Shown here: piece after piece, positions 10,352 through 42,250 of the stretch
Layout: each line of letters opens with the position of its first letter
Numbering within the stretch: the first letter of the stretch is position 1
Assembly (NCBI RefSeq): GCF_964204645.1
Contig: NC_134028.1
Coordinates: 17,615,653-17,679,652, forward strand
From: Tubulanus polymorphus
Taxonomy: Eukaryota > Animalia > Nemertea
Length of the DNA: 64,000 bases
Direction of reading: 5' to 3'
Translations under genes and position numbers: made by a program
Notes under the pieces: model-generated
What the model saw: only the letters and a program-made list of their open reading frames with translations
Told to the model about the DNA's origin: nothing
The model's database searches: none

Positions 10352-10870
10352 AACAATTGCAATATCTTTATAAGAATTTTTATTAACTGATTCACACTGA
10401 ATTGCAATATCTTTAAAAGAATTATTGTTTTCTAAATCACATTGAATTTCAATATTTGATGTATTTTCATTATAAATAATTTGTTTATTATCAAAATTAC
10501 AATAATATAATTGTCGTTTTTCAATTCTTAAGTCTATCCTATCATTACCTTTTGAAAGTATTATATCACTTTCTCTTTCATTAAAAGGAAATTTAAGAAT
10601 ATTTATTATGTTTTCATCTAAATTACCTTTATAATTTAAAACTGTATTAAATATTTTAGGATTTTTGGCGCCATTATCTAAAGTATCTATTAGTTCAGTT
10701 ATTAAATATGTTTCATTTAATACTATTTGATTAATTACAGTAATATTATTAATTTTATATTGTCTTCCATATACTAAATTTTTTGCTGAGATACAATTTT
10801 TAATGTTAAATAGTGAAAATAATTCATTCAATTCTTTTATTTCAATTTTAAATTCCATTTCTTCTTTCAT
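10349..10870 (-). CDS. Hypothetical 173-aa protein of the non-autonomous element
   Basis: Intact ORF with TATATAAATG start; paralog at 7004-7427; C-terminal repeated (K/I)xIxIQC motifs. Confidence 0.7.
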   Translation of the reverse strand: MKEEMEFKIEIKELNELFSLFNIKNCISAKNLVYGRQYKINNITVINQIVLNETYLITELIDTLDNGAKNPKIFNTVLNYKGNLDENIINILKFPFNERESDIILSKGNDRIDLRIEKRQLYYCNFDNKQIIYNENTSNIEIQCDLENNNSFKDIAIQCESVNKNSYKDIAIV

Positions 10871-10884
10871 TTATATAGCAAAAT

Positions 10885-11140
10885 TATTACTCACACTTTA
10901 CTCACACTTTTATTATTGAAAATCTAACTTATTTTACTCACACTTTACACACACTTTTAACATTGAAAATCTAACTTATTTTACTCACACTTTTAACGTC
11001 GAAAATCTAACTTATTTTACTCACACTTTACTCACACTTTTAACGTTGAAAATCTAAATTATTTTACTCACACTTTACTCACACTTTTAACATTGAAAAT
11101 CTAACTTATTTTACTCACACTTTACTCACACTTTTAATAT
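10885..11140. repeat. ~47-bp tandem repeat (TTATTTTACTCACACTTTACTCACACTTTTAACATTGAAAATCTAAC), 5-6 units
   Basis: Directly visible upstream of the 173-aa ORF. Confidence 0.9.
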
Positions 11141-11159
11141 TGACCAATTTTATCATTTT

Positions 11160-11408
11160 ATTAGCGCTTTTATATTAAAAAGTGTGTTTATTTTTGGAAA
11201 AAAGCAAAAAATTTAATTTTTCTAAACTTAATTTTATTTCTTAATTCGCGGATACTTTCTCTCCATATTTAGTTTTTATCTTTTCTAATTTCAATATTTT
11301 ATGTTCACTTTCTTTTGTAACATCAACTAACTTTTTTATTTCAAATTGTTTTTTTGCTGGTTTTATTCTGTTATTTATTGTTGCTAAGAATGCTTTTCTA
11401 TCTCCCAT
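11160..11408 (-). pseudogene. Divergent homolog of the Polinton 117-aa (SSB-like) gene
   Basis: MGDRKAFLATINNRIK..FEIKKLVDV..EHKILKLEKIKTKYGEKV resembles LFLDRIK..YKFKKLTEL..KYLITNIDTVTNNYGDKL; start TTTTTTTTCCTTATAAATG; stop at 11241. Confidence 0.55.
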
Positions 11409-11493
11409 TTATAAGGAAAAAAAATTACTTGTGGTGATGAGTGGTGTCTCGTACTCTCGTACTCTGATCTGAAACCCACATCTTCTAATTACT

Positions 11494-14958: not shown

Positions 14959-15145
14959 ATGTCGGCTATACAGCAATTAAAGACGGCTAATCTCGCTGGG
15001 CTCAATAAATACAGCCGCGACGAATTAGCGGAATATATACTGTCCCAGACTCAGAATCCCGGACCCACAACCGACGGGAAGGCAGGCGATGATGAACCGC
15101 CTGTAGATGCCGGTGCCGTCGGAGGTTTCGAAATGATTACACGAC
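14959..15145 (+). pseudogene. LINE ORF1, 5' part
   Basis: MSAIQQLK...EMITRQ joins in frame to ILESEKRL at ~31870 once the Polinton and one TSD copy are removed. Confidence 0.8.
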
Positions 15146-15742
15146 AGTAATAGGGGTAATGGGCTTTCAGATCAAAGGTCGAAGGGTCGAGCTCATTAAA
15201 AAACAAAACATTAAAAGTAATTAAAAACTATAATATATTTTCATAACCGTGTGTATTTTATATTAAAACTAAATATTTATTCTAAGATATCAATAATCTA
15301 AAAAGCATATTGTATTAAATCAATTGGTCGCTCCGCTTCGCTACCGCTCCGCTCCGCGACCAATTGATTTATTTACAATACACAAATTCATATAATCAAA
15401 TATATTCAAATGATAATAATTATTCTATTGTTCAACTGAAATACACACGGTTTGAAAATATATTATAGTTTTAAATTACTTTTAATATTTGTTATTAATG
15501 AACTCGACCATTCAACCTTTAACCCGAAAGCCCATTACCCCTATTACTCTGAAAATATTCATATACATGAATAACATTTAAATCATTGAACTTCTAAAAT
15601 CAATTTTGATAAAAAATTTAGTATTAAAATGGAAGCAAATAAGTACTACTGTCCAACATGTAATATCAATGTAGATAAATCCCAAAAAGCAAGACACAAT
15701 AAAACTAAAACACATTTAGAGAATAAATTGAAACTAGAATAT
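15146..15742 (+). repeat. Left TIR, containing a 403-bp hairpin (15146-15548) and the first 38 PolB codons
   Basis: Reverse complement of 31266-31863; internal palindrome ending CCCCTATTACT at 15548. Confidence 0.95.
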
Positions 15743-18700
15743 AAAGATGATATATTAGAAACTAAATTAGATGAATTAAAGAATGAAAAAGAAATATATA
15801 AATGTGATACATGTTATCAACCATTCAGTGATAAAAGATATTATAATGAACATTTAAAATCTAAAAGTCATATTAGAAATAAGAATAATGATATTTTAGG
15901 TGAAGATTATTTTGATAAAGATAATGATAAGAAACAGAAGACAATTAAAAACATAAAAAATAAATTAAACAATAAAAGACCATACATGGAAGATGTAAGA
16001 AATTATATTAATTCATTAGATAATAAAAAAGATATAGAGATAACCGAAGCATTTAAAAGTGATATTGGTCCAGCAGCTGTCGAGTTTAAATTTCATAAAG
16101 GAAAAACATTAGAAGAAAATAAAAAACATTTAGAAAATATGAAAAATATTATAAAGATAATTACTGATGTTGAATATCCTAAAATTAGTATATCAGTTAA
16201 AGTAAAGTTTATAAAATCTGAAGATAAACCAATATATAATATAAATTCTCATTCACAACATATTATTTCAAAACAACATATAGATGATAAATTAGATAAA
16301 TGTTATAATGAAGTAAAAACTAAAATAGAAGAGAAATATTTTGAAGGATCTGGTTTAATATTTGATGAAATAATATTTATGACTTTACATGTTTATAACA
16401 CAAAATATATTAAGTTAACTAAATCAAAACCAATTGATGAAAATAATTTATCATATTATAAAGATGATAGTATAAATGGAACAAGTTATATTAAACTACC
16501 ATTTAAAACTAATGCTGTAATAAATGTACAAAATTTTGATAATAAATGTTTTCTATGGGCTATAATAAGTTGTTTACATCCTGCAACTTATAATATTTGT
16601 AGATTAACTCATTATAAACCATTTGAAAATAATTATAAGATAGATAAGTATCCTGTTATAATTAAAGACATCCCAAAAATAGAAAGAGATAATAATTTAA
16701 AGATAAATGTATTTGATTTAATCAAATTACCAAATACAAAAGGTAACAATATAAAACATTATACATTAGAACCTTTATATCTATCAAAAGATTATGATTC
16801 AAACGATGTTATAGATATACTATATTATGAGAATCATTATATGTGGATTAAACAAATCGATTTATTTTTTAAATCAGAAAATGATCACCATAAAATATAT
16901 CTTTGTAGAAAATGTTTACATAGATTCAGTAATGAAAGTGCATTATTAAATCATAAACAATTATGTGAAAATCATGATTATTGTAAATTAGTTTTACCAA
17001 ATGAAAAGGATAAAATATTAGAATTCAAAAAATATGATTACAAAAATAAAGTACCATTCGTAATATATGGAGATTTTGAATCATTAAATAAAGAACTAAC
17101 TGATCAAGATAGAAAAGAAATATATTATAAAAGAAAGAAATTAAATTCTAATGAAAATGATTTTTCAGATGAACCACCAAAAACAAATACTATTAAAAAG
17201 ATTCATCAATCAGCTGCTGCTTTCGGGTTATATATAAAATCTGATTATCCAGAACTAATTGAAAGTGAATATTATAATTATAGAAATGAAAATGTTATCA
17301 ATCATTTTTGTGACTTATTGATTGAATATGAAATAAGATTTAGTAAATTATTGAATACAAATATAGAAATTATAATGACAGAAGATAAAGAAGCATTTGC
17401 GTTTGCAGGTAAATGTTATTATTGTGAAAAGATATTTAATTATAAAGATAAAAAAGTAAGAGACCATGATCATTTGAACGGAAAGTTTAGAGGCGCTGCA
17501 CATGAGAATTGTAACTTACAAGCTAAGAAAATTAATTTTGTACCAGTTATATTTCATAATCTATCAGGATATGATGCACATTTATTTATCAAACAGTTAT
17601 GCCATAAAATAGAAGAAATCAATAATGAAATAGAAATATTAAATTCAAATAGATCAAAAGATAAAATACCAACTTATAAATTTAGAAGGTTAGCTAAAAC
17701 ATCTGAGAATTATATATCATTCCAATTTGGTTGCCTAAGATTTATAGATTCATATAGATTTTTAAATAGTTCATTAGATAACTTATCAAAATCATTAGTT
17801 GATGATGAATTGAAAATATTAAAGCAACACTACCCAAATAATGATGATTTCAAATTAATGAGATATAAAGGAGCAATTCCATATTCTTTCTATAAAAATC
17901 ATAATGATTTTAACATAACTGAATTATTAAAAGAACAATTCTATGATGAATTAAAAAATGAATATGTTAAAGATGAAGACTATAATAGAACATTGAATAT
18001 TTGGAATCATTTCAAAATAGAAAATCATGGGCAATTAGTAGATTTATATTTAAAATCAGATGTATTATTATTAACCGATTTATTCGAAAGGTTTAGAGAT
18101 GTAAACCTAAAATATTTTAACATTGATCCTTGTCATTGTTATTCATCACCAGGATTAACATGGGATTGTGGATTAAAATTTACAAATATAAAAATGGATT
18201 TGTTAACAAATATAGATCAATTACTATTATTTGAAAAATCTATAAGAGGAGGTGTTTCAGGTGTATTAGGTGATAGATATTTCAATGTAAATGATAACCC
18301 TGGATATAAGTTATTATATATAGATGCAAATAATTTGTATGGTTGGGCAATGATGGAACCACAACCTTATGGAGTATTTGAATTAACTGAAGTTTTACAG
18401 AATAAAAATAATGATAAATTTGATTGGAAGAAAAGAATCCTAGATATTGCAGATGATTCAGATACTGGTTACTTCTTTGTTGTAGATTTAGAATATCCTG
18501 AACATATTAAATTTAAATCTAGAAATCTAGCTTACTGTCCAGAACATAAAACTGTAACTCATGAAGAATTACCAAATTATCAAAAAAGAATTAAACCCGA
18601 AAATCATATTCATACAGAAAAGTTAATGGTAACTCAAGAAGATAAATATAATTATGTAGTACATTATAGAATGTAAAAGTTTTATTTGAATCAAGGAATG

Positions 18701-19654
18701 ATTCTAAAAAAAGTACATAGATATATTTCATTTAGTCAATGTACGTGGTTAGAAAAATATATAGATTTTAACACCAAACAGAGAACTGAAGCTAAAACTG
18801 ATTTCGAGAAAGATTTCTTCAAGTTAATGAATAATGCATTCTATGGTAAGACTTGTGAAAATATTAGAAATAGAAATGATATTGAGTTAGTCAGTAATGG
18901 TAAAAGAATTAGACATTTACAAACATATCCTAAATTTATAGGTAACAGAATATTTGATGAAAATTTAGCCGCAGTTAAAATGAGAAGAACATCAATGAAA
19001 TTTAATAAACCAATCTATGTTGGCGCTTCAGTTTTAGAATTATCAAAATTACTAATGTATGAATTCTATTATAATGTATTACAACCACTTTTTGGAGAAA
19101 AACATATAGAAATATTATATTTTGATACAGATTCTTACATATTAAAGATAAAAACTGATAACATAACTGATGATTTAAAAACATTAAAACATCATTTTGA
19201 TTTTAGTAACTATCCTAAAATTCATGAATTGTTTAGCAATGATAATAAAAAAGTTCCCGGTAAATTCAATGAATTAGGCGGTGAAGAAATGATTGAATTC
19301 ATAGGTATTCGATCTAAAATGTATTCATATAAAACTAAAGAACATGAAGCTAAAAAGTTAAAAGGAATAACCAAAAGTGTAGTAGAAAAGAATATTCATT
19401 TCAAAGATTACATCAATTGTATATTCAAAGAAGAAGTTAGAAAACATAAGATGAGATGTTTAAGATCTGAAGATCATGAAATGTTTATTGAAGAGATAGA
19501 AAAGATAAGTCTAAACCCATTTGATGATAAAAGATATATTTTAGATGATGGAATTCATACAGTTGCTTATGGTTGTAATTTAGATGAATACTTAAAATTT
19601 AAAAGAGAAGAAACAAAAGAGAACGAGATAATGAAAAGAATTCTAACGTGTTAA
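15629..19654 (+). CDS. polB: Protein-primed DNA polymerase B with N-terminal C2H2 fingers and EndoVII-like insert; one premature stop at 18674-18676
   Basis: ExoI YGDFES, FHNLSGYD, YLKSDV, motif A YIDANNLYGWAM, motif B KLMNNAFYGKT, motif C YFDTDSY. The TAA replaces the TTA (Leu) seen in copy 1. Confidence 0.96.
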
Positions 19655-19683
19655 TCAAATTTTAATAAAAATATGTTATTAAA

Positions 19684-20037
19684 ATGGAGAGTAAACAAGC
19701 ACACAGTGAGAACAACAAATTATTTCTAGATAGAATTAAAGATACTACAAATGTAAAATCTGTAGATTATAAATTCAAAAAGTTAACAGAATTAACAATC
19801 CATAAGAAATATCTAATTACAAATATTGATACAGTTACTAATAACTATGGAGATAAATTAGTTATACACTTAGAATATGAAGGATTAAAAGGAAATACAT
19901 ATAAATTTAGAACATATTTACCAGATAGATTTCATAGATTATCAAGTGAAGATTTAGAAGAATTATGTTCTGGAGATTTCTATTTCGTATACAAAAGTAA
20001 GAATGAAAAAGGGCACCATGAAATAGATTTCGAATGA
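19684..20037 (+). CDS. 117-aa protein, candidate OB-fold ssDNA-binding protein
   Basis: Intact in both copies and adjacent to PolB; KKLxEL...YxI...YGDKLVIxL...YLPxRF pattern. The function is inferred. Confidence 0.7.
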   Translation: MESKQAHSENNKLFLDRIKDTTNVKSVDYKFKKLTELTIHKKYLITNIDTVTNNYGDKLVIHLEYEGLKGNTYKFRTYLPDRFHRLSSEDLEELCSGDFYFVYKSKNEKGHHEIDFE

Positions 20038-20054
20038 GAAAATATGTAAAATAA

Positions 20055-20812
20055 ATGGCGGAATTAAAAGAATACAGAATATTTGTTGATTCTAGAAAAC
20101 TTACAAATTATAAATCACATAATTTATTAGTACAATTAGATAGAGAATTTAAGAATTGTGTTGATTTAAAATTAGTAAATATAAGTTTATGTAATTCTTT
20201 TTACAATATATCGAATAAAACTATTGAACATAGAGCTTTTTTAATTTTTAATAAAAATAAAAATGAATGGGTCTATATATATTTAAAACCGGGGTTATAT
20301 AATTTAGATACATTAGCACAAGAAATTAATAGAAAAGCCTGGCACAAATTAGGTAGTAGTTCTGGGTTTAGTGTTAGATTTTTAAAAAGTGAGAGTTCTG
20401 ATAGAATAAAGATAAGGTTGTCTAATAGTGAAAAACATAAATTTATGGTAAAAAAACCTATAGCTAAACTGTTAGGAATTCTTCCAGATAGATCTTTTAC
20501 AAATATTGACGCTACTACACCAAACTTAATACCTTACACACATTTTTATATTTATTGCAATTTAATCGATCCTACAAAAACATTCGAAGCAACTAAAGAT
20601 ATAACTTGTAATTCTGGTTTACCATTTTACCATTGAAGAATGTTAAACAATTTGGAACGCAAATAAATTATAATTTAGCTGAATGTGATTTCAAACCATG
20701 CATTCCTAAATTCAATAATTTTAAATTAGAAATAAGAGATCATAATGGATATTTAATTGATTTGAATAACTTTCCTGTAATTTATGAATTAGTTATAAGA
20801 TGTAAAGAGTAA
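20055..20812 (+). pseudogene. Minor capsid protein (penton, single jelly roll), frameshift near 20615
   Basis: IFVDSR...LVNISLCNS.YN...PGLYN...FYIYCNLI...; C-terminus IRDHNGYLIDLNNFPVIYELVI in the shifted frame. This pattern is typical of Polinton pentons. Confidence 0.8.
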
Positions 20813-20828
20813 TTTTTTTATTATATAA

Positions 20829-21188
20829 ATGAATATAACTGTTGGACCGAGTATATGTTTTGGGTTTGATTTTAAACGTGAGAAAGAAATGAAATTTAAC
20901 ATTAATGATGTAATTACACATATCAAAAATATTACATTTTCTAGTGAAACAACATTTGAGTATGAAACAACAATAGATAAAGAAACTTTAAATGTAGAAA
21001 AGATTACTAATATAATTAGAGAATCTTTAAGATTTTATGAATTAGATGAAGATTTTATCATAGATGATATCAAAAACATATTATCCAAAATATATGATAA
21101 TCATAAAAGTAGTAATGAAATAAATGTTGAATTAATTATAAATAAGATAACTAAATATTTTGATGATAGTAATTTTTTTGATAAATAA
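20829..21188 (+). CDS. Polinton hypothetical protein (119 aa)
   Basis: Intact ORF, T-run/TAAATG start, conserved in copy 1. Confidence 0.75.
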   Translation: MNITVGPSICFGFDFKREKEMKFNINDVITHIKNITFSSETTFEYETTIDKETLNVEKITNIIRESLRFYELDEDFIIDDIKNILSKIYDNHKSSNEINVELIINKITKYFDDSNFFDK

Positions 21189-21412
21189 ATGAGTGATAAT
21201 AAGTGGATAATAACTGGATTATATAATGGCGCATTACTATCAGTTGGAACTGTTGGTTATTCAATGGTATTAAAAAAAGTATTCAAAATGGGAAGTGTTT
21301 TAATGTTGATAGATTTGATATAAATGATATCTTAAAATTAACATTAGCAGTTACTTTATCTAATTTAACAATTGATTATTTGGAAAAACAAAAATATATT
21401 CCTCCCATATAA
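21189..21412 (+). pseudogene. Small membrane protein, frameshifted (intact at 439-660)
   Basis: MSDNKWIITGLYNGALLSVG...QKYIPPI with a small insertion near 21300. Confidence 0.75.
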
Positions 21413-21436
21413 ATACATAATTTTTTTGCTAAATAA

Positions 21437-21847
21437 ATGGCGTCTGCAATTATAACTATTATAGGATCGGCAATTGTTAACGCTTTAGCATTTACTGGTG
21501 GTGGATATTTATTTAAACATATTGATAAAAATAGTTCATTAGGAGAACAAAGAAGACATAATTTAGCATTAGTGAAATATAATAAAGCTGCAGAGAAAAG
21601 AGGCAAAACTATATGGATTACATCAATAAAGAATTATATGATCAGAAGATTTCACAGAGATTTTCAATCAGTTGATGATGCAATGAGTTTATATAACGCG
21701 GTAACCAATAAAGAAAAATTACATCTATACAAACCTAAATTATCAGATTATTATACCCCAAGTAAAGAACAACAGAAATATGAAATAATATGGATTTTAG
21801 GTGGAACTGTTATTGTTATATTTGTTGCTTATAAGTTTACTAATTAG
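21437..21847 (+). CDS. Polinton conserved protein with hydrophobic N-terminus and C-terminal TM helix
   Basis: MASAIITIIGSAIVNALAFTGGGYLF...RRHNLA...PKLSDYYTPS...IIWILGGTVIVIFVAY; the middle appears locally frameshifted relative to copy 1. Confidence 0.75.
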   Translation: MASAIITIIGSAIVNALAFTGGGYLFKHIDKNSSLGEQRRHNLALVKYNKAAEKRGKTIWITSIKNYMIRRFHRDFQSVDDAMSLYNAVTNKEKLHLYKPKLSDYYTPSKEQQKYEIIWILGGTVIVIFVAYKFTN

Positions 21848-21867
21848 TAATTTTTTTTGCTAAATAA

Positions 21868-22302
21868 ATGGAAGATAAAGTTGATAGTATTGATATTATT
21901 CCTCATGATATAAATAAAACTAAATTAAAAACATATTTAGAAAAACAAATATTAGAATTTGAAAGTGACTTAAAAGTTAAAAAGAAAAAATATCTAAAAA
22001 GTAAAATTATATATTATTTGATTATAAGTGATTCGGTTACAATTAGTTCTGTAATAACATTTCTAGCAATATTCAGTCCATTAACACCTATAGCTATATC
22101 AATTGGTGTGTTAGGATTAAGTTCAAGTGTTTTAACTGGTATAAGTTCAAAATTAAATATAAAAAGTAATAAAGAAAAAATTAAAACTAATATAAAAGAA
22201 ATTAATAAATTAAAGAACACACTAGATTATATCATAAGTTTAAATGGTCATATAACAGTTGAAGAACAAGATAAATTATTAAAAGAATTAATAAATTATT
22301 AA
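21868..22302 (+). CDS. Polinton coiled-coil protein with a hydrophobic hairpin (144 aa)
   Basis: Central ~45-aa hydrophobic stretch flanked by Lys-rich helices. Confidence 0.75.
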   Translation: MEDKVDSIDIIPHDINKTKLKTYLEKQILEFESDLKVKKKKYLKSKIIYYLIISDSVTISSVITFLAIFSPLTPIAISIGVLGLSSSVLTGISSKLNIKSNKEKIKTNIKEINKLKNTLDYIISLNGHITVEEQDKLLKELINY

Positions 22303-22318
22303 TTTTTTAATTATATAA

Positions 22319-23706
22319 ATGGTAGATAGTTTTCCAAAAGCTTTCCAATATAATAAATCAATTAAATATAATATTCCAGCAATAGATTTTAATAAAGATA
22401 TTACATATAGAAATGAAGTTTTAGATTCATTAACTAATTTAGAAATTTATGTTACTGAAACTAATAATTATAATGCAACGATGGAAAATATATTTCATGT
22501 ATATTTAATTAATTTTAAAAAATTGAAAGATGAAAAACAATGGTTATTAAAATCTAATATGAAGTATTGGCAGAATCAATTAAATTTTGCTGTTTATTGT
22601 TCAACAACAGGATGTGGAATAAGTTGGAATGATCATTTGAATAATTCTAAATATAAACTAATTCAAAGTTTATTTAGATTTCATACATACTTTCAAATCA
22701 GAATAATATTAAATGAATTAGAGTGCGCTTTACCAGGATCAAGATATTTTAAAGAATTAGATAATAATATTAATTTATCTAAGTTTTATAAAATTTGTAA
22801 TGAATTTAATATAGATATAAATAATTCTGATTTTAGAACAAAAATTGGAACAATAAGATCACTTCCTTGCCCTAAAAAGATTGCAGAATATTGTGCACTT
22901 CCCATACCATCTAATAGTTTTTATAATATCTATAATAATAAATTAGGTTATGGTAAAATAGAAACTAAGGATTTAGAAACATTAAATTTCAATAAATTAC
23001 CGAAATTTTATGATAATTTAAAACAAGAAAACAATAATGGTTGGGTTTATTTTATTTTAGAAAATAGTGAAGGTTTTACTAAATCAGGTATAGAAAGAAT
23101 AAATCAATCAATTAGAACTTATTTGATTTGTATTCTAGGATCACAAGTTGAAACAAGATCCCCGATAATTGGAAATTTGAATACATCATTCGATACACAA
23201 AAACAATTTAAAGTTTTATTTGAAGATTCCATACATAATGATAAAAATAGATCGATTCCAGAATGCATTATAAGATATCAAAATTATTTAGATAAATCTC
23301 ATGTAAGACTTAATTATTGTATAGGCCCTAATCTATTAATTATTTCTAATGATTTAGTATTAAAGATGGGAAACATAATTGGTTATAATAATCTAATTAA
23401 AACTGCAACAATAAATAATTCATTTGGATTGAATGATATAAATAAAAAGATTATTACTGCTCCAAAATTAATGGAAGGCGAAAAAAATATAAAACACATT
23501 CAATCAACAGAAACTAAAACTAAGAATATTAATTAAATAATGATTCTAAAATAAAAGATTATAATACATCAGAAAATAATAGAACTGATATTATTCAACA
23601 TGATATAATTAATCTAAATGATGATAATAAATCCCATGAAAATACTAAATTAGCTATAACTTGTATAGGAATTGTAATCGGAGGAATATTATATTTTAAA
23701 TTTTAA
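22319..23706 (+). CDS. Polinton conserved hypothetical protein; C-terminal TM tail lies beyond a frameshift at ~23535
   Basis: 405-aa ORF (WQNQLNFAVYCSTTGCGISW, RFHTYFQIR); the downstream frame ends HENTKLAITCIGIVIGGILYFKF*. Confidence 0.75.
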
Positions 23707-23722
23707 TTTTTGTATTATGTAA

Positions 23723-25180
23723 ATGGCAGAAGATGGAGAAGGTTTTCCAATGGATCCTTTAGGTGATGAACCCGGTATAAGTGATGAACCACAACCTGAT
23801 TTTAATGAAACTAATATTGATAATGATGATGAATCAGCATATAATTCTAATTTAGAAGATAGTGGTTCTAAAGTCCCATCAACAGAAGAAAATGATAGAA
23901 GAATTAGATCGAGAATACCTACTGAAAATTTAGACCCCAGGTTAGAAAGAGAATATATTGAAGATAATGAATATATTCATAAATTCAAACCTGTATTTAA
24001 AGAATCTGGATATAATATAAATGATAAAGTCGCCAGATTTTTAGTAAAAAAATTAAAGTTTTTAGATGGTGAATATTATTATCATTTGAAAGATGATTAT
24101 TATATTGATATCTCTAATAAAAATGAAGACAAAATAGTAGCAAAATCAACTTTGCTTAAGTTTGACTCATTACTATCTAGAATTAAAATAATAAGAAATG
24201 GTAATGAAATAGAAGATGTAACACAAGAATTATTAACTGATAAAAATAAAAGAGTATTTAAACAAAGAATTAATAAGTTATTTGAAACAATCAAAGATAA
24301 TCCAGAAACAGAAACAACTTCTGAACAGAATAAAACTTCAAAAACTAGTAAACTTAAATCAAACGAAGTTCAAACTGAAAAACTTTTACCGAATGGATTA
24401 CTTGATGCAACAGATCAAGAAATAGAAGCTTTAAGTATGTTTTCTAAAAAAACAATTAGAGAAATAATAAGTATACGAAATGAAGCCGATAAAATTGCGC
24501 GCGAAAAACATTAGATATAATAAAATTAAACCTTTAGAAAATAAATCATTTGACACCAGAAAAGAATTAGAACAATTAAAATTAGATAGAGAATTTTAAG
24601 TTATTGAAGAAATTGAATTTAAAAAAAGAAATGCATATTTAGAAATGAAATTGATGATTTAGAATATAACATAGAATTTCATAAAGAAAAAATGAAATTA
24701 TTATTAAAATCATATGATTATTGTATTAATAGATTAAAAGTTGTTGTTAAAGAGTTAATACTAAAACCAAATTCTGACATATCACTAAAAGATAGAATAA
24801 AATTATTATTTAAGTTTGAAGGAATAACAATTCTTTCAATTCTAACAGCTGTAACTATGTTATTTACAACAATTGGTTTAGCAATATCAAATGCTTTAAA
24901 ATCTACACCTACTCCCAATAAACCAGATAAACCCCCGAATGATAATAATTCTATACAAGATAAAGTTAAATATGGTTTAAAGAAATTGGCAAAATATTTA
25001 TGGGAACTATCTAAAAAATCTGCAGCATTGCCAGGAATTATTGCATCAATTGTTGGTTTTATATTGAAATCTGCAGGTAATATTCTTAACTTTGCTGCTG
25101 AACATATTATTTTATTTTTAATTACAGTTGTAAGTGCTATTATTTTTGGGTTAGTAAATATGATATCAAAAAATAAATAA
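23723..25180 (+). pseudogene. Large acidic/coiled-coil protein with C-terminal membrane segments, frameshifted at ~24510-24690
   Basis: ORFs 23723-24514 and 24692-25180 are joined by a coiled-coil-like segment; GITILSILTAV and LPGIIASIVGFIL TM helices. Confidence 0.7.
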
Positions 25181-25200
25181 TTAATTTTTTTGTTAAATAA

Positions 25201-26449
25201 ATGAGTGGGAGTTATATCAATCCTTCGAAGAATCATAGAATATCTAATGCTATTAAAGCAGAAAGATCACATCGTATAATTACTCATAACCCTTCTAATA
25301 TTAATCCCGATGAAACTTTATACGTTAGAATCCCTCGATTAACACAAAATACTTTTTACGTTCCAAATAGTATTTATTTATCGGCTGATATAAAAGTAAT
25401 CGGTAATAATAATAATTATGTTGTTGATAATGTTGGAAGATATTTGATTAAAAAGTTAATAATAAAGATTGGTCCAGAAACAGTTTTCTCATTAGATGAT
25501 TATAATTTATTTATGCATTATAAAGATTTATGGTTAACTAAAGAAAATAGAAATAATATGATATTTCAAGGCATCCAACCAGAAAACCAAAATAAATTAA
25601 GATCTGAAGCCAATAATGCAGTAGTAACTAATGCTGTAGATAATTTGATAAAAAAAATTTATGGAAGCAAATATAAAATTCCATTAGACTTTGAATTGAT
25701 AAATAATAATGCACCTTTATATAAATACGCAATTCAAGAAGACGTTATATTCGAAATAACATTTGCTCCTGTAAATGAAATTGTATTATCTAGCGTTGTT
25801 AAAGATATGAGTTATGAATTATCGAATATATGTTTAGAATATGACACAGTAACTGATGAAAATATTTCAAGTATAATTCAAACTAAATACAATCAAGGAT
25901 TTTCATTATTATATGATTATATTGATAAATTTAAAACCGTAACTATTAATGCAAATGATGAAATAATTAATGAGAATATTAACTTCCCAAGAAGATCTAT
26001 TAAAGGTATATTAATATTTTTTACCATTGCAACATATACTAATGGCGCAATAAATGTTGATAATTATTATAATCCTGAAATAACAAAAGTAGAAATAACT
26101 ATCGAAGGAATAGCAAATAAAATATTTTGTCAAGGAATGAGAATGATTGATCAATGGCCAGAAATTAGAAAACATTTTATGAATGAAAAAGTAAAATCAT
26201 CTGAAAATTGTAACATTAATCAAATTGATTATTATACCGGCAATAAATATGCATTATGGTTAGATTTTAGAACAACAGAGGATAATTCATTACATGGTTC
26301 TGGAAAAAAAACTACGGAACACTAAAGATGGAATACAATTATTCATGACAAAGAATAAAGGAATCAAAAATTTTAAAATGCACATTTATATTATATCTGA
26401 CGCGCAATTAAATATTGTAAATTCTCAATTAGATAGTGTTATGTATTAA
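25201..26449 (+). CDS. Major capsid protein (double jelly roll), frameshift in the A-run near 26305
   Basis: ITHNPSNINPDETLYVRIPRL...NICLEYD...NINFPRRSIKGIL..YNPEITKVEITIEG...LWLDFRT.EDN.LHGSG; size and motifs fit this Polinton MCP family. Confidence 0.82.
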
Positions 26450-26481
26450 AATTTTAACTTTAATAAAAATATATATAATAA

Positions 26482-27246
26482 ATGGAAGGAGGTAAAGTAT
26501 ATAAACATATTCCATACATCGATACACATGAAAATAATGATGGTTTATATTATGTAATACCTTGTAATATCGCTTTGATATTTGATCCTATTTTCAAAAA
26601 TTATAAAACTAAACTAATAGAAATCGATAATAATTTAAGTAATGTAATTGATAATAATGTAATACCTACTACATCTAATAATGTAATACCTACTACATCC
26701 AATAATGTAATACCTACTACATATAATAATGCAATAATATTAAATGTTAGTAAAAATATAAATTATTGTGATTATTGTAAAGGTGAATTTTCAAACGCTC
26801 CATCAAATTGGAATAAACATATGAATACAAGGGTACATATAAATAATGTTATAGAACGTGTTGGTTTAAAAGAATTTATAGAACACCCATTTAGATATGT
26901 TACAAAGTTTGTTTCAAATCAAAAAGTAAATGGTAAAGAATTATATAAAGATTTATTATTAGCAACACCTAATAAAGATGAATTAGATCTAACCGATGCT
27001 AATGAAATATTAGAATCAAACACTGTAAATGAAATATTAGGAGCAAACACTAATAAAGATTCTATGAAACATAAAGTAGAAAATAATGATAACTTTGATT
27101 GGATGAATAAGCATAACAATGAAACAACTATTGATGATGCGGTAAAAAAGGCGAAGAATAAGTACAAAAATAATGAAGAATTAGAAGAAGATTCGGTAGA
27201 GAAATTGAGAAAATTGTTAGGGGGGTCTGATAGTGAAAATGATTAA
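26482..27246 (+). CDS. Accessory protein with a C2H2 zinc finger and (NNVIPTTS)x3 repeat
   Basis: CDYC...WNKHMNTRVH; 24-bp internal repeat at ~26655-26725. Confidence 0.7.
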   Translation: MEGGKVYKHIPYIDTHENNDGLYYVIPCNIALIFDPIFKNYKTKLIEIDNNLSNVIDNNVIPTTSNNVIPTTSNNVIPTTYNNAIILNVSKNINYCDYCKGEFSNAPSNWNKHMNTRVHINNVIERVGLKEFIEHPFRYVTKFVSNQKVNGKELYKDLLLATPNKDELDLTDANEILESNTVNEILGANTNKDSMKHKVENNDNFDWMNKHNNETTIDDAVKKAKNKYKNNEELEEDSVEKLRKLLGGSDSEND

Positions 27247-27432
27247 GATATTAATTATATTTAACTCAAATAATAATATTAGTTGAAAATTGTATAAAAT
27301 AATAGTAAATAAAAAAGGGGGTTTTAAGTATTTAAGGTATCTAATAGGGTATCAGGTATAAGGGTATCAGGTATTAGGGTATCTAATGGGGTGTCAGGTA
27401 TTAGGGTATCTAATACATAGTCATACAAATAG

Positions 27433-27953
27433 TTATTTTATAAATTTATATTCATAGGGAAATTGTAGTCTCAGTAATAATTTTGAACCTTTATTATTCT
27501 TTAATTTATTCATATATTCATCATGTAATTCAGTAGGTATAATTTGATTTTCTTCCAATGATTGTTGCATAGATTTTTTATCTTTGTTATAAAATAAAAC
27601 TAGAAATCTAATGTTTTCTCTAAAGTCTTTAACAATTGAATTATATTTTTGATTTAAAACCCATGTTGTTATCCCAAAATGTCTCCCAGAGAAAGCTAAA
27701 TAACATAACTCACTTTCTCTCACTTTTGAATCATGTAAACTTGCGCAATCATCTACAATGAATAATGTATTTGATCCTTTATAAGTATCAATTGCTATTT
27801 TTATACAATTATCTAAATTTTCTTTTACTGTTTTAGGAAATAATTCTTATAAATAGTTTCTAACAAATCTAATATGAAATGTGTTTTACCACAATTGGTT
27901 ACACCAGTAACTAACATATTATGCGGTTCAAATATAAATAAATCTTTATTCAT
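27433..27953 (-). pseudogene. A32/FtsK-like DNA packaging ATPase with an internal deletion
   Basis: Reverse strand MNKDLFIFEPHNMLVTGVTNCGKTHF (Walker A), LFIVDDCA (Walker B), LAFSGRH..TTWVLNQKY..FRENI. Confidence 0.88.
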
Positions 27954-29043
27954 TTATTCTTTTAATTTTACTAGATAAAATCCATTCATTAAATTTATCA
28001 TCGTATCCTTTATATTTCACCGAAGAATACTTTTTTCCTTTAAGAGTTTTTGTTTTCAATACTTTTTCTATTTTGTATTCTATTTCATCTGGGTTTGGTA
28101 CAAGTGATAATTCTTGTTCATAGAAATAACCTAATATTTCTTCATCTTTTAGATCTTCTAATTTATAAACAAAAGGTTTAGTTAATATTATCTTTTTAAT
28201 TTTAAATATTTCTTCAGTAAAATTTGGGGTATAACCTTTATAAAAGGTTTTTCTATATTTAGATATTCTTACGTGTTGTCCAATTTTGAATCTAGGTTCA
28301 CCGAAATCGTGTGTAACAAACGCCCCATATAAATTATTCCAAACTATTTCCGAATTATCTTCTTTTCTAGCTTGTATAGGTTTCATATTTATAGAACTAT
28401 GTTTAGAATTATTATAACCTTTCACTAAATCATCTAACATATTTATAGACTCACCGATATATTTATATGTTTCATTAGCAGTAAAATATTTCCACATTCT
28501 AGTTTTCAATGTTTTATTAAATCTTTCTATAATAGATGCTTTTTTATCTGAGTGTGTTGAAAAATATTTTACATCGTTATCAGATAATAGTTTTTTAAAA
28601 TGTTTGTTATAAAATTCCTTACCTTCATCAAATTGTATCTTATCTGGAATAGCTTCTTTAAATATAGATTTAAAAGCATTTGTAACTTCTATTCCAGTTT
28701 TATTTTTGATTGGAATTGACCATGCGTATCGACTGAATATATCTATAACATTCAGTATCCAGAAATATGCTTTGTTGTATTCCTCTAAGTTCTTCATGTC
28801 AATTAAATCTGCTTGCCATTGTCGATCGATATATGAAACCATAACTTTCCTTGTTAAATAAGTTTTATCCATTTTCTTGTGTATTTGATATGTTGGTTGA
28901 TTTTGTAACCATGATTTTAATTCACTATATTTTATACCACCATTATCAGATTTAATTTTATTCCATAATTCTGAAACGTTAGAATATGATACTTCACTTT
29001 CTGGGTTATAATATAAATCTCTTAAATATTGTCCTTTTTTCAT
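27946..29043 (-). CDS. int: Retroviral-like (rve) integrase with C-terminal chromodomain, intact
   Basis: WQADLIDM (D), IQFDEGKEF (D), IIERFNKTLK (E); YKIEKVLK...VKYKGYDDKFNEWI chromo-like tail. Confidence 0.95.
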   Translation of the reverse strand: MKKGQYLRDLYYNPESEVSYSNVSELWNKIKSDNGGIKYSELKSWLQNQPTYQIHKKMDKTYLTRKVMVSYIDRQWQADLIDMKNLEEYNKAYFWILNVIDIFSRYAWSIPIKNKTGIEVTNAFKSIFKEAIPDKIQFDEGKEFYNKHFKKLLSDNDVKYFSTHSDKKASIIERFNKTLKTRMWKYFTANETYKYIGESINMLDDLVKGYNNSKHSSINMKPIQARKEDNSEIVWNNLYGAFVTHDFGEPRFKIGQHVRISKYRKTFYKGYTPNFTEEIFKIKKIILTKPFVYKLEDLKDEEILGYFYEQELSLVPNPDEIEYKIEKVLKTKTLKGKKYSSVKYKGYDDKFNEWILSSKIKRINE

Positions 29044-29049
29044 TCTATT

Positions 29050-29448
29050 TTAATCCATTAATAATAATTTAGATTTAGTTTCAATGACTTTATGATTTGA
29101 CTTATTTTCTGGTATAATATGTTTCCGATTGTCATTGGAATCATCTTTATCATCAGATTTGAATTTTGATTTATATATTACACCGGATAATATAATAACT
29201 GTTACTAATCCAATTGTAATATATAATTTATAATTACTTCCAACATTAGAAGAATTAGATGGATAATCATTCGAATCAATATCAGATAATTTCTGTGATT
29301 CATTTATATCAGTTAATTTCTTTTTCTTAGCTTTTTTTAATTCTGAAGATCTTTTACCTAATTCTCTTGCCCATTTAATTTGTTTCTCGGATCTAGCCTT
29401 TTTCTTAACGTCACTGTGTGGGCGCCGTACGGCAATACCATCACTCAT
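29050..29448 (-). CDS. Basic protein with a single TM helix (132 aa)
   Basis: Lys/Arg-rich N-terminus and LYITIGLVTVIILSGVIY. Confidence 0.7.
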   Translation of the reverse strand: MSDGIAVRRPHSDVKKKARSEKQIKWARELGKRSSELKKAKKKKLTDINESQKLSDIDSNDYPSNSSNVGSNYKLYITIGLVTVIILSGVIYKSKFKSDDKDDSNDNRKHIIPENKSNHKVIETKSKLLLMD

Positions 29449-30043
29449 TTATTTTAGTTAATTTTTGTTCTGATTCATTTTCTGTTTCGACGTTTGGTTG
29501 TAGTACATCTGTTTCGTTCTTACCTGATTTATATTCCATAGGCTTGATGTTCGAAAATGTTATGACGCCAGTAGAAATTAATGTCAAAACCGATCCTAAT
29601 TGAAATGAAGCATATCCAACCCATTTTTGTAATTCAGTCATAACTAAATAGTCATTTTTCAAATCACTATATAATTTATTTTCATCATCAATTGGTATTA
29701 ACTGGTTACATAACTTAGAATAACATTTGACAATACCATTCGAAATAGAATCATTTATTTTAGCTAATCTTGCCTCTTCATAAATCTTAAAATATTTTAT
29801 TACTTTATCTGGTTTCATAACATCTAATTCTTGAAAAGTAATGATTCTATTTAAAAACTCCTTAGATTTCCCGCCAGCAATTAATAATTCAAGATGATGC
29901 TTACAATAAAAGTAGTATTCATAATCTATATTGTTATTAACTTGAATAGAATTAGAAACAACTGTATCTTTATTATCACTTATACCCAAATCATCTAATG
30001 TCTTTTCAATATCAATACTATTCTTATTAGATTTCTTTGACAT
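29441..30043 (-). CDS. Polinton hypothetical protein (200 aa) with a C-terminal hydrophobic segment
   Basis: Intact ORF with TTTTTTCCTCTAATATAAATG start. Confidence 0.72.
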   Translation of the reverse strand: MSKKSNKNSIDIEKTLDDLGISDNKDTVVSNSIQVNNNIDYEYYFYCKHHLELLIAGGKSKEFLNRIITFQELDVMKPDKVIKYFKIYEEARLAKINDSISNGIVKCYSKLCNQLIPIDDENKLYSDLKNDYLVMTELQKWVGYASFQLGSVLTLISTGVITFSNIKPMEYKSGKNETDVLQPNVETENESEQKLTKINE

Positions 30044-30373
30044 TTATATTAGAGGAAAAAAGCAAAAAAAGATATGATAAGTATTCTTCAAATGATACCA
30101 GTATCTCTTTAGATTAATACTAGCTTAGTTAAAGGTAAAGAATTTTAGTATTAGTTATTGTTTTTTTAGTATTTTTTATTTGTGATATAAAGTATTCTTT
30201 TTTGAAAAGAAAATATTAAAAATATGATAGAATTCACTAGCTAGTTGAAGTTATTGTTTTTTAAATACTTTTTATTTAAAATCTATTTGATATCACCATG
30301 TGGGTGCCGTACGGCACCATCTCACTACTTTTGTTTATCTATTAGGAGCAGTAGTTATAACTGTCCAGATAAG

Positions 30374-31048
30374 TCATTTCGGATCCTTGATATCAAATTC
30401 CTCAACGTATTGTTCATTATTTTGATTATTGTTCCATTGATCAATAAATTTCTTTGCCTTTGTTAACTGTTCTAAATATAACTGTAAATCTAGTTTATTA
30501 GATTTGATTTGATTTTCTTTCTTTTCTAAAGTCCTTAAATTTTTCCAACCCCAAATAAGTTTTTTATTGTATTCATCATTCATGTTAAATTTAGATATTG
30601 GTAACACGTGATCAATATGGTAATAATCCCCATAATTATCTATATTCATTTTATCATCGAATTGAAATATAATCCATGATTTGAGAAATTCATCTGAACA
30701 ACCCAATAAATTAGATAGTGTTTCTGAATGTGTTTCTTTGTTGAATAATTGTGTTAATCTAGATCTTAAGCATTGTTTTAATCTAAAATTAAGATCTGTT
30801 TGATATCTTTCTCTCATATATTCTGTCATATAATCATTATAAGCTTCTCTATTATCTTCTCGATATTGTTTAGTATATAGTTTAGTACAAGTTTTACAAC
30901 AATATTGAAAACCATCTTTGCTAATCTTACGCTTACTAAATTCTGTTAATGATTTATCTAATTCACATTTAGAACACTTCTTGTAGTATATGTTTATAAC
31001 GCCAGTGTTATTTGTAATATTGATAATTTGTGGTTGTTCTGGTTCCAT
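30374..31048 (-). CDS. Zn-ribbon plus HNH endonuclease (type common in large DNA viruses)
   Basis: KKCSKC..K.L.EF...G.Q..CK.C; LLGCS..FL; YHIDHVLPIS...NLRTL...EN..KSNK. Confidence 0.85.
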   Translation of the reverse strand: MEPEQPQIINITNNTGVINIYYKKCSKCELDKSLTEFSKRKISKDGFQYCCKTCTKLYTKQYREDNREAYNDYMTEYMRERYQTDLNFRLKQCLRSRLTQLFNKETHSETLSNLLGCSDEFLKSWIIFQFDDKMNIDNYGDYYHIDHVLPISKFNMNDEYNKKLIWGWKNLRTLEKKENQIKSNKLDLQLYLEQLTKAKKFIDQWNNNQNNEQYVEEFDIKDPK

Positions 31049-31127
31049 TTATTATACGTATTTTTTTACTAAATTGGTTAATAATTTTAGAATCCTCTTC
31101 AATTTCTTCGACCAACGTCATCCTTTT

Positions 31128-31379
31128 TCATTCCTCGCTGCTTTTGATAAGTTGTTTCGATTCCTTGATATCAAATTCCTCAACGTATTGTTCATTATTT
31201 GGATCATTATTCCATAATTCAATAAATTTCTTTGCCTTTGTTAACTGTTCTGAATATAACTGTAAATATTCTAGTTTCAATTTATTCTCTAAATGTGTTT
31301 TAGTTTTATTGTGTCTTGCTTTTTGGGATTTATCTACATTGATTTTACATGTTGGACAGTAGTACTTATTTGCTTCCAT
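31128..31379 (-). CDS. Chimeric 83-aa ORF: PolB N-terminal zinc finger (from the TIR) fused to a duplicated HNH C-terminus
   Basis: First 38 aa are near-identical to PolB; LQLYSEQLTKAKKFI..NNEQYVEEFDIK is duplicated from 30374-30490. Confidence 0.7.
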   Translation of the reverse strand: MEANKYYCPTCKINVDKSQKARHNKTKTHLENKLKLEYLQLYSEQLTKAKKFIELWNNDPNNEQYVEEFDIKESKQLIKSSEE

Positions 31380-31863
31380 TTTAATACTAAATTTTTTATT
31401 AAAATTGATTTTAGAAGTTCAATGATTTAAATGTTATTCATGTATATGAATATTTTAAGAGTAATAGGGGTAATGGGCTTTCGGGTTAAAGGTTGAATGG
31501 TCGAGTTCATTAATAACAAATATTAAAAGTAATTTAAAACTATAATATATTTTCATAACCGTGTGTATTTCAGTTGAACAATAGAATAATTATTATCATT
31601 TGAATATATTTGATTATATGAATTTGTGTATTGTAAATAAATCAATTGGTCGCGGAGCGGAGCGGTAGCGAAGTGGAGCGACCAATTGATTTAATACAAT
31701 ATGCTTTTTAAATTATTGATATCTTAGAATAAATATTTAGTTTTAATATAAAATACACACGGTTATAAAAATATATTATAGTTTTTAATTACTTTTAATG
31801 TTTTGTTTTTTAATGAGCTCGACCCTTCGACCTTTGATCTGAAAGCCCATTACCCCTATTACT
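31266..31863 (-). repeat. Right TIR with hairpin (31460-31863)
   Basis: Near-exact reverse complement of the left TIR. Confidence 0.95.
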
Positions 31864-31869
31864 CACGAC

Positions 31870-39849: not shown

Positions 39850-42250
39850 AAGACCCATCTTTTCTTCTTCGACGGTGTACAATTTAAAATCTTTCGTTCG
39901 AATCGAGTTATATTTAATTCTGTGCGGATTGTTCTCCTTTACGATTGGCGGTAAACGTCGAATGTGAGGTCTTGCAGAAGGCAACGTTTAATTCCTTTCG
40001 CCGTTTGCTTGCTTTTGTTTTCTAACGTTTTCACGCAGTACATTTTTCGGTCGAAGCCCGACGAATCCGATGATTTGTTTCGGAATCGGATATTCTTCTT
40101 TGAACGCCCCGCGACGCCGATGATTACCATCGCATTTATAACCGCTTTCTTCGGGATAATTCGACATATCAATGTACTGCCGATTCGCGTACCTGTCCGT
40201 GGCGATTGGGCGGTTCAGCCCGCGAATCACGAACGCCAACGAGTCCGTGTCGCTGAACAACAACCGATATCACCCTCGTACATTTTGCCGATGTAATTGT
40301 CATGGAATTTGTACATGTGAAATTTAGTGCTCTCCACTGCCGACGGCGACCGGTTTGTTGAGAGTGACGACCTCCTTTTTCATCTCTATACCCGCTAGAT
40401 TCTTATCGTAAACGTGGATCCCGGCGAAGTTGTGTTTCGCCGTTAATCGTAAGTTACGCCTTTTCGAACTGACAAACGAAATGTCAGATTTGTCGGCGTC
40501 TCTTCCGATGAATTTCCTGTACAAAGTGTTCAAAATTAACTTGTACAAATCGCTTTCGAACTCCGGTTTCCGTCGTTGTTCGGTGCCGAAGTTGATGACA
40601 CCGGCTAACCAGGCGCTCTGTTCGAACGCGAGTATCTTGTGTATTTTCTTCACGAGCAAGCCTCGTTCTACGTAGAATTTTAGGTTCGCGCTGTGCGTAA
40701 CGTAATTATGTTTAGGGCCAAGGTGCGGTATTAGTTTTTCCCCGCCTCGTTTTATCGGTACCCATTGTCGTGAATAAAGCTTTCGCATTAACGGGCTCCA
40801 GTCCGCGGGAAATATCTCTTGTTTTTTCAGCGCAGATCGGAAATTGCGATTGCGCATCGTGGAGATGTCGCAGCAAAAAAAGTAAGCGATGTTACTTTTA
40901 ACGTCTATAGCACCGATATCGAATTGCCTAACTTCCTCCCGACTCAACCACCTGTAAGAACGAAAGGGAAGCATCCCGGACATCGCGTAACCGTACAAAT
41001 TGCAGCAATCAAAATACGCGATTTCTGCCCTTTCTTCGTTCGCGTCGTGTTCTTCCCCCATTTCCGGTATATTCGCGCTCGCGTATCGGTGGTTAATAGT
41101 TGCAACGCCGCCTCTTATTCCAGCTTTGATGAAATTTACCATGTTCACATCTTTTGGCAACTGGATTTCGATACCCGTGTACTTCAACATGGCGTTGCAC
41201 GCCGCGTGCGGGGTGGAATAGTAGTTGACTATCGATTCCGAATAGTGTATAAAATACGTTTCTATACCCTTGTACGACGTCGGCCAACAGTAAAACGTCG
41301 CAGGCGAGATACAACGTCGTAGTCTACTAGCGTTTTACAATTTATCGCGTTCCACACGCCGAACGTCTGAGCGTAGTCCTCTCGCGACATATGCCTCCGC
41401 TCGAGAACGTTGTAAAAATATTCCTTCGCCGGTAATTTCCGCTCTTTGAATTTTTCAATACCGTCGACGTAGTCGTACGGGTACGCGGTTTTTCGACACA
41501 ACATTTCGTACAAAGGGGGGAAGGCGACGGTCGTTTCTTCTCCGGTCGTCGATGAATTTCCTTTTTTCAATTCTACTAGATTAGCCAACCTATAACGTTT
41601 GATAACTATAAAAAAAACAAAATTCAAGAAGTTGATAACGATAAAACTTTCTTTCGTTTTCGCCAGCATTCTCGGGGTGGGGAATTCCCGCGACTTTGCG
41701 AAAGCCACTAGTTCCCTGATGATCAAATTGAAATCGAATCGCGATCCGTTATGCGCGAACGCAAAAATCTGTCCGTATTTTTGCGCGCGATTTCTGTTGC
41801 AGACGTCGCAAAGAACGCCGAGAAACATTCCGGTGAGATGATCGTGGTGCTTCGCCCGCTTTTCATCGGCGCGGAACTTACGTTGACAATATTCGCATTT
41901 CGTAACTTTCGAGTAATGCAACCAGTCCTTTCCCCTCATGTTCAACGACCGGTATATCTTGTCGTTGATTATAGCTAAGTGATCCCTTTGCAGCACGAAC
42001 CATTTCGCCAATTTTACGATGCAGTCTTCTCCGATGAATATCGCCAAAGGAGAATTATATTTCTCGTTCGAACATAAGCGAATTCCCGCCGCGCATATCG
42101 CGCGATAGCGTTTCACAGGTCCTTTCTCCCGTCGTCGGTCGGTATCGCCGCTGTTTCTATATCGAAAAATACCACGTGATCGGCGTAACACATACTTCTG
42201 AAATTCCTTCACGCAACTTTCTTCGTCTCCCGCGGGCATACGATACACGA
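39850..42250 (-). pseudogene. polB: Older, GC-richer Polinton pPolB of a different family (C-terminal part)
   Basis: KCEYC..KHHDHLTGMFLG.LC..CN, AHNGSRFD, YLACDVLLLADV, GIRGG, YFDCCNLYGYAM, YKLILN, LFSDTDSL. Confidence 0.88.

Follow-up and report, generated by a model that had tools for sequence, protein, structure and literature searches.

How the genes of animal Polintons are expressed, and whether these elements live as transposons, as autonomous viruses or as satellites, are questions posed in concrete form by a window of 64,000 nucleotides (nt) from the nemertean Tubulanus polymorphus (contig NC_134028.1, positions 17,615,653 to 17,679,652). Positions 15146-31863 of this window are occupied by a decayed Polinton of 16.7 kb, about 76% AT, with terminal inverted repeats and genes for a capsid protein, an integrase, an ATPase and a polymerase, and nearly all of its genes start within TAAA(A)TG, a word that resembles the initiator of poxvirus promoters. 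As this pox-type signal is shared by a whole clade of relatives, it makes the question testable. Judging from the promoters, we consider it probable that a co-infecting pox-like virus transcribes the element family with its cytoplasmic RNA polymerase, which would make the family a satellite, virophage-like animal virus.

The signal at the start codons

A first-pass annotation of this DNA had described a run of T, followed after a spacer by TAAATG, at the starts of virion and membrane genes. With a spacer of 6-9 nt this arrangement is indeed present at 20829, 21437, 21868, 22319, 23723, 25201, 30043 (-), 1015 (-), 9455 and 11408 (-). The start at 21189 had been listed as lacking a T-run, but a run of seven T is found there. 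For the counts, 17 gene starts were picked by hand from the list of open reading frames (ORFs), excluding 18698 and 24692, the downstream pieces of split genes, and were compared with the 645 other ATGs of the same element by a Fisher test and with 20,000 shuffles of the 25 upstream bases. TAAATG stands at 13 of the 17 starts and at 38 of the 645 other ATGs (p 1e-12), TAAA(A)TG at 16/17 and 45/645, and the complete form, with five or more T, 6-10 nt and TAAATG, at 8/17 and 1/645. The shuffles yielded TAA-ATG at a mean of 1.6 and a maximum of 7 starts and the T-run form at a mean of 0.08 and a maximum of 3, so that the proposed enrichment over an AT-matched background holds for both. Over the whole window the T-run motif has 27 overlapping matches, corresponding to 15 distinct sites, where chance gives a mean of 1.8 matches. 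All 15 belong to three AT-rich elements that are related to each other, and past 31.9 kb there is no site; two of the 15 are one antisense site of the family B DNA polymerase gene (polB) in two copies.

The 16 signal-bearing starts of the window element split cleanly into eight with a T-tract and eight with an A-tract upstream. T-tract starts belong to the capsid gene and to hydrophobic and other likely virion genes, A-tract starts to polB, the gene for a single-strand DNA-binding protein (SSB), the ATPase and nuclease genes and the genes at 20055, 26482, 29448 and 31379. The association with virion and membrane genes is real, but the signal is not confined to structural genes, since polB (15629), the SSB gene (19684) and the gene at 31379 (-) start in TAAAATG. 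The early promoter consensus AAA(N)TGAAAA is found at none of the 17 starts, and TGAAAN4A at four, at scattered distances.

Conservation among related elements

Relatives were collected from metagenome contigs with a capsid alignment, and the best 80 of 240 loci were taken. The capsid tree, from a quick IQ-TREE search with a midpoint root for drawing, holds 50 rows, the window and the 49 loci with a long capsid ORF and a usable start; it is made up solely of relatives of the window capsid, and the element is classed as a Polinton, not as a virophage. In one clade of 15 rows (SH-aLRT 97), 14 capsid genes start in TAAATG, and the remaining one has the word 4 nt upstream of its start. Among the capsid rows outside this clade the word occurs in one of 35, the long-branch locus L080. 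Counted over all genes with a homologous N-terminus, it stands at 49 of 59 starts in 16 clade loci (L051 and L069 being assigned to the clade by identity, not by the tree) and at 13 of 430 in the 64 outgroup loci, an enrichment relative to other Polinton clades. A second count after removal of shadow ORFs gave the signal at 49/55 clade starts, at 3/64 starts in outgroups with a GC content of up to 40%, and at 5/265 other outgroup starts. Clade loci with at least 30% GC retain TAAATG at 21/26 starts; outgroup starts with at least 80% AT upstream have it at 1/53. The gaps between genes are short in the element, as the first-pass annotation had pointed out, but they are equally short in relatives without the motif and do not mark it.

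The motif persists at GC contents of 20-44%, across rearranged gene order and at accessory genes. In locus L001, the closest relative of the element, a deoxynucleoside kinase gene (10340-10981, -) lies under a T-run TAAATG promoter; no named viral relative of this kinase was found. What is fixed upstream is a T nine bases before TAAATG, present in 94% of 49 clade starts (T at -10: 71%) and in 54/60 clade starts against 27/90 TAAATG words that are not starts, the position having been picked from the profile and then tested on largely the same starts. T-N8-TAAATG is thus the fixed part, and the tract 5' of the fixed T is variable. A core of the form TTT(T)(A/G)ATAA stands 11-13 nt before TAAA at four A-tract starts of the window element (11-12 nt there) and at 5/60 clade starts, never at a capsid gene, and most of these starts also carry the fixed T. 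In DNA reads of many copies, the one promoter followed, that of the capsid gene, shows no variant at 2% in TAAATG or in the fixed T, and four of the eight spacer bases vary. Where divergent genes lie about 30 nt apart (L009-L013), the interval contains T-runs and paired CATTTA...TAAATG initiators. Base -3 is T in 49/55 clade starts and A or G in 47/64 and 188/265 starts of the two outgroup sets; a Kozak bias would work against the motif and does not account for it. TAAA is near 53/55 clade starts, with 33 expected, and there is neither a TATA excess nor a TATAAA peak 20-40 nt upstream of these starts.

Simpler causes of the motif were considered and rejected: AT richness, as equally AT-rich outgroups lack it and it holds in loci of 40-44% GC; stop-start coupling, as its TAA is the stop codon of an upstream ORF at only 1/60 clade starts; Kozak bias, as the T at -3 opposes the purine preference of the outgroups; and a role of the T-run as a mere terminator of the upstream gene, as it is present between divergent genes and absent before A-tract genes.

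Other subclades have start signals of their own. In the AT-rich outgroups, 43 of 64 starts have TATA within 20 nt, where AT-matched ATGs predict 25.7, and 24 have TATATA, with 8.7 expected; there is no TATA excess further upstream. Locus L073 (47% GC) has TATA at 6/7 starts, and a 165-aa ORF in it (5082-5579, +) matches the C-terminal part of Pox_VLTF3 with an E-value of 3.6e-5 and 24 bits, the cut-off being 25. The VLTF3 family comprises late transcription factors of large DNA viruses; the L073 protein has no homologue in the other 79 loci or in the window. Virophages share the late promoters of their helpers, and mavirus-like types carry different motifs (PMC8547959). These leads suggest that in the wider group, too, late transcription may be borrowed from large DNA viruses, with a different donor for each subclade.

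Further observations on the relatives may be added. TATA, TATATA or TATAG was seen within 20 nt of starts in L016-L018, L022, L024, L044, L053, L063, L073, L076 and L077, in the manner of the asfarvirus late initiator. GC-rich outgroups (e.g. L027, L037, L049 and L062) have a start-proximal GTTCAA in 14 loci (15, with 3.4 expected) that matches no known promoter, and its reverse TTGAAC was seen by eye. The L001 kinase cluster and a member of the L001 capsid cluster both list a contig of 16,883 nt, approximately the size of a whole element, and in cluster P0047 capsid homologues 53% alike are deposited on short contigs as Bartonella hypothetical proteins, likely host contamination. Capsid searches of IMG/VR and of GTDB genomes gave no relative.

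The polymerase that would read the signal

The vaccinia late promoter is described as TAAAT(G) over the start codon with a conserved T at the tenth base upstream amid other T residues, and the intermediate promoter as TAAA with an AT-rich, A-preferring upstream region (PMC11980589). The intermediate core lies 12 bp from TAAA, has no strict consensus and is read by the viral polymerase itself, with a warning by the authors that TAAA is frequent elsewhere (PMC12917281). In common with vaccinia late promoters, the element has a TAAAT(G) that spans the start codon and a conserved T amid upstream T residues; back-to-back promoters of about 30 nt are also found in both, and possibly an AT-rich core about 12 bp away, the split into two classes being clean in the element and loose in its relatives. 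The vaccinia G8R promoter (TTTAACTTTAAATAA, 12 nt, TAAAATG; PMC12917281) resembles that of the gene at 26482 (TTTAACTTTAATAA, 12 nt, TAAATG), a likeness that may partly be due to chance in AT-rich DNA. What remains of the original proposal is a pox-type promoter that is enriched, restricted to a clade, independent of GC content and opposed to Kozak bias; the parts that made it specific for structural genes and based on a long T-run find no support, and the dependence on a helper is what these promoters suggest.

From these features we infer the polymerase, the helper dependence and the timing classes of the following scheme. Integrated copies would be silent or nearly so in uninfected cells. 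Upon infection, a copy would enter the viral factory in the form of naked DNA; the promoters active there would be post-replicative, not early, and none of the starts has an early consensus. The polymerase and SSB genes, with their AT-rich core 11-13 nt before TAAA, would fire like intermediate genes and the T-tract capsid and membrane genes like late ones; this is the weakest step. Transcription would begin at the initial A of TAAA and add a poly(A) leader by slippage, and the T at -3 would thus never enter the mRNA. The element's own polymerase, ATPase and capsid would then copy and package it, and the integrase would insert new copies.

The coding strands provide a further comparison. TTTTT[ACG]T occurs 12 times on those of the clade, where 38.4 are expected given protein sequence and codon usage (ratio 0.31); the ratio is 0.91 on the antisense strand and 1.10 in the AT-rich outgroups. 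TTTTTNT is the poxvirus early terminator (PMC3061580), and its avoidance fits a pox-type polymerase, though not neatly a post-replicative programme. For TTTTT followed by two non-T bases (T5VV), 45 are observed and 64.8 expected on the clade coding strands (0.69), the contrast having a p of 0.007 in genes that are homologous and not independent. GC-rich outgroups avoid T-runs generally (T5 0.55). AATAAA is avoided in no group (observed/expected 0.89-1.01). Of three contig sets with the same species label, one of them possibly RNA, two had no record at the capsid promoter and one had a single partial record; they have no bearing on expression.

Several points weigh against transcription by a pox-like helper. 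The helper virus, the RNA start and the poly(A) leader are all predictions from the promoters, TAAA is short and frequent, and the fixed T lies nine bases before TAAAT and not at the tenth as in vaccinia, which is one base off or a difference in counting; moreover, the -9 position was chosen after the profile had been seen. The capsid promoters of 13 relatives are T-rich in six cases, mixed in four and A-rich in three, so that the long T-run proposed as a conserved promoter part is not one, and the SSB gene of L001 has a T-tract, so that the type of tract is not fixed per gene across the clade. L080, outside the clade, has TAA before 3/4 of its starts. The deficit of TTTTTNT may simply be avoidance of T-tracts, as T5VV is low too, and because the word ends early transcripts its avoidance does not follow from post-replicative promoters. 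The even AATAAA frequencies do not tell a nuclear from a cytoplasmic mode of expression, and neither an RNA polymerase subunit nor a pox factor turned up in the window or in the clade ORFs scanned. Finally, numerous insertions in the germ line are not easily accounted for if each round needs an infection.

The nature of the helper is a first point on which another reading deserves weight. It could be a cytoplasmic element with a pox-related RNA polymerase that is not a poxvirus, either another member of the pox, asfar or egovirus class or a linear plasmid like pGKL2 acting in trans. Yeast cytoplasmic virus-like elements do have a TAAAN initiator and poly(A) leaders (PMC6211774), the displaced fixed T would be in keeping with a different polymerase, the main text of the egovirus preprint has no promoter description, and a marine metagenome run contains a small share of sequence related to the element. 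We nevertheless regard this as rather unlikely, since late genes of African swine fever virus initiate at TATA with short leaders and not at TAAAT (PMC7163114), the late signal of pacmanvirus is TATATA (PMC11788076) and the late motifs of other giant viruses differ (PMC5294985), while TAAATG fused to the start codon with T residues upstream is the poxvirus form, entomopoxviruses included.

It is more doubtful still that the element is an autonomous nuclear one in which T-N8-TAAATG serves host RNA polymerase II, or a zinc-finger factor of the element, as a lineage-specific promoter or translation signal, its likeness to poxviruses being convergent. Such a signal would be one more beside the start-proximal words of other subclades (TATA, and GTTCAA with its 15 occurrences), the element does encode zinc-finger genes, and many genomic insertions are easily explained by autonomous transposition. 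The T at -3, however, is the base that is disfavoured in the outgroups, the clade lacks the TATAAA peak 20-40 nt upstream, and the strand-specific deficit of TTTTTNT is not predicted. By its spacing, moreover, a TATA-like box at the start codon would put the polymerase II start inside the gene.

We give little credence to the promoters being a relic, with the clade derived from a pox satellite and now spreading without a helper. At least seven genes of the window copy are interrupted and the majority of reads resemble it at 90-99%, but the motif is kept in relatives about 50% alike in the capsid, many of them with full-length capsid genes, across rearranged order and at accessory genes, which argues for continuing selection. 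An artefact of AT richness and tight packing, with stop codons falling next to start codons, can be practically dismissed: the element is AT-rich, its gaps are short and 21189 is a true stop-start junction, but TAA is so placed at 1/60 clade starts and equally AT-rich, equally packed outgroups lack the motif, which persists at 40-44% GC.

The element, its neighbourhood and known systems

The features of the element and of its two relatives in the window are as follows.

15140-15145 and 31864-31869: target-site duplication CACGAC, the same 6 bp on both sides
15146-15560 (+): left terminal inverted repeat, beginning AGT, about 415 nt, an imperfect hairpin of about 400 nt; read ends pile up here with unlike flanks
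31449-31863 (-): right terminal inverted repeat, ending ACT, then CACGAC
15604-15631 (+): A-tract promoter of polB, TTTTGATAA, 12 nt, TAAAATG
15629-19654 (+): protein-primed family B DNA polymerase with endonuclease VII-like domain, in pieces of 1015 and 318 aa, split near 18676-18698
19660-20037 (+): A-tract promoter (TTTTAATAA, 11 nt, TAAAATG) and likely SSB of 117 aa (ORF 19684-20037)
20036-20812 (+): gene started by TAAATG, possibly a minor capsid protein (DUF5901, E 0.004, below cut-off); broken near 20590-20630
20813-21188 (+): T7-N6-TAAATG promoter and 119-aa gene (start 20829) of no known family, with four unnamed relatives
21173-21415 (+): T7-N6-TAAATG promoter, its TAA the upstream stop, and small hydrophobic gene; broken near 21300
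21421-21847 (+): T7-N6-TAAATG promoter and 136-aa hydrophobic protein, common to outgroup Polintons
21851-22302 (+): T8-N6-TAAATG promoter and 144-aa protein with hydrophobic segments
22303-23703 (+): T6-N7-TAAATG promoter and conserved Polinton protein of about 440 aa; broken near 23530
23707-25180 (+): T5-N8-TAAATG promoter and a single gene in two pieces (23723, 24692), 454-485 aa in relatives
25185-26449 (+): T7-N6-TAAATG promoter and double jelly-roll major capsid gene; broken near 26305
26453-27246 (+): A-tract promoter (TTTAACTTTAATAA, 12 nt, TAAATG) and likely zinc-finger gene (start 26482)
27433-27970 (-): A32-like packaging ATPase, its TAAATG within the integrase 3' end; broken near 27837
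27946-29043 (-): rve integrase with chromodomain (PF00665, E 4e-9), the sole start without TAAA(A)TG, with TAAAAT a few bases upstream
29050-29466 (-): A-tract TAAATG and 132-aa gene with one hydrophobic segment (start 29448)
29441-30060 (-): T6-N9-TAAATG promoter and conserved 200-aa gene (start 30043)
30374-31075 (-): A-tract TAAATG; likely a nuclease of the HNH type (relative L002 has an HNH match below the cut-off)
31128-31404 (-): copy of the polB promoter and a zinc-finger start (31379, TAAAATG) fused to the tail of the nuclease gene
1-5812 (-): left portion of another copy of the family; its promoters are the same, its terminal hairpin is shorter
6512-11440: third, rearranged relative with one hairpin end, SSB-like genes and 24-nt arrays; T-run TAAATG at 9455, 9649 and 11408

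With its repeats and target duplication, family B polymerase, rve integrase, double jelly-roll capsid and A32-like ATPase, the element is a Polinton/Maverick. The polymerase is 32-54% identical to its relatives; its only Pfam match is PF02945 (endonuclease VII), below the cut-off, with no polB family match, and we take the polB motifs of 15629-19654 to be such by their appearance. The SSB candidate has a predicted fold resembling PRD1 P12 (E 4e-3) and phage SSB (E 8e-5), and the capsid model (pLDDT 84) is a double jelly-roll with PBCV-1 capsid as best match (E 1.5e-7); PDB sequence searches returned no informative match. Pox_A32 matches at E 5e-11 in L001 and at 0.001 in the window ATPase fragment. 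A scan of 19 element and 26 clade ORFs against Pfam families found no match to a protease family, and thus no adenain-type maturation protease. As polB, the genes at 20055, 21189, 22319 and 23723 and those for capsid and ATPase are interrupted, the window copy is not itself the dormant working virus that had been suspected. In a raw DNA run with the same species label, 81,435 reads fall on the element, mostly 90-99% alike, and 555-582 (agreement 0.35) leave each element end into unlike flanks, which indicates a family at many genomic sites.

The terminal repeat folds into the imperfect hairpin at -106 kcal/mol (z -18), and a query with it gave no match in any relative locus. Imperfect terminal hairpins of 160-400 nt are found at 15146-15548, 31459-31864, 6512-6853 and 5655-5812, with similar arm mismatches in three elements; mismatched hairpin ends are known in poxviruses, of which these repeats are reminiscent. 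The relative at 6512-11440 sits inside a retroelement that is presumably of BEL/Pao type; its 24-nt arrays read as 8-aa repeats, an inverted duplication surrounds 9455/9649, and 47-nt repeats lie near 10840-11170. Elsewhere in the window we observed remnants of another, decayed gene for a family B polymerase, richer in GC and without TAAATG starts (39900-45800, -; PF03175, E 9e-9), an array of palindromic, inverted repeats of about 260-600 nt rich in GTCGAC/CGATATATCG (47760-50240), and a Gypsy-type retroelement with a baculovirus F-like envelope gene (56950-63219, +; PF12259, E 1e-12). The neighbouring sequences comprise LINE, gypsy with envelope, MULE and BEL/Pao-like elements, a company that indicates an animal host.

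Among known systems, the yeast elements pGKL1 and pGKL2 are not known to have a capsid or to integrate. They are linear, with TAAAN initiators, 5' poly(A) leaders and a pox-related polymerase (PMC6211774). This RNA polymerase is their own, and none was found in the Polinton. Mavericks, Polintons and adintoviruses have the same repeats, polB, rve, A32-like ATPase, double jelly-roll capsid and germ-line insertion with a 6-bp duplication (PMC8502044); the element differs from adintoviruses in that no adenovirus-type protease was found, in its element-wide pox-type initiators and in its long hairpin repeats, and the main text of that paper mentions neither promoter nor helper. Mavirus and endogenous mavirus-like elements are likewise integrating polB/rve viruses with genes under the late promoter of a helper, but mavirus has a protist host, CroV as helper, a TCTA motif and an experimentally shown dependence, whereas the element has an animal host and a putative pox-like helper (PMC8547959). 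The Polinton-like viruses associated with entomopoxviruses have been proposed as poxvirus hyperparasites; by their description they are set apart by a size of about 12 kb, a protease, a tyrosine recombinase or no integrase, and a link established by co-purification, and the main text does not discuss promoters (PMC11296320). Nor does the main text of bioRxiv 10.64898/2026.10.13.758929 mention a promoter. A search of the literature outside subscription papers found no description of poxvirus promoters in Polintons.

As a tentative generalization, the animal Polintons of this group could be satellites of viruses of the pox/asfar class, with the promoters of each subclade showing its helper: a poxvirus with its intermediate/late programme for the present clade, and an asfarvirus for the AT-rich sisters, one of them with a captured late factor. 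In that case the integrated copies would be an inherited reservoir of virophages that infection triggers in invertebrates, and would point the way to invertebrate poxviruses still undiscovered. If transcription by a pox-like helper is correct, the borrowing of helper promoters, shown for protist virophages, extends to germ-line elements of animals, and pox-like viruses are predicted in hosts from which they may not yet have been described.

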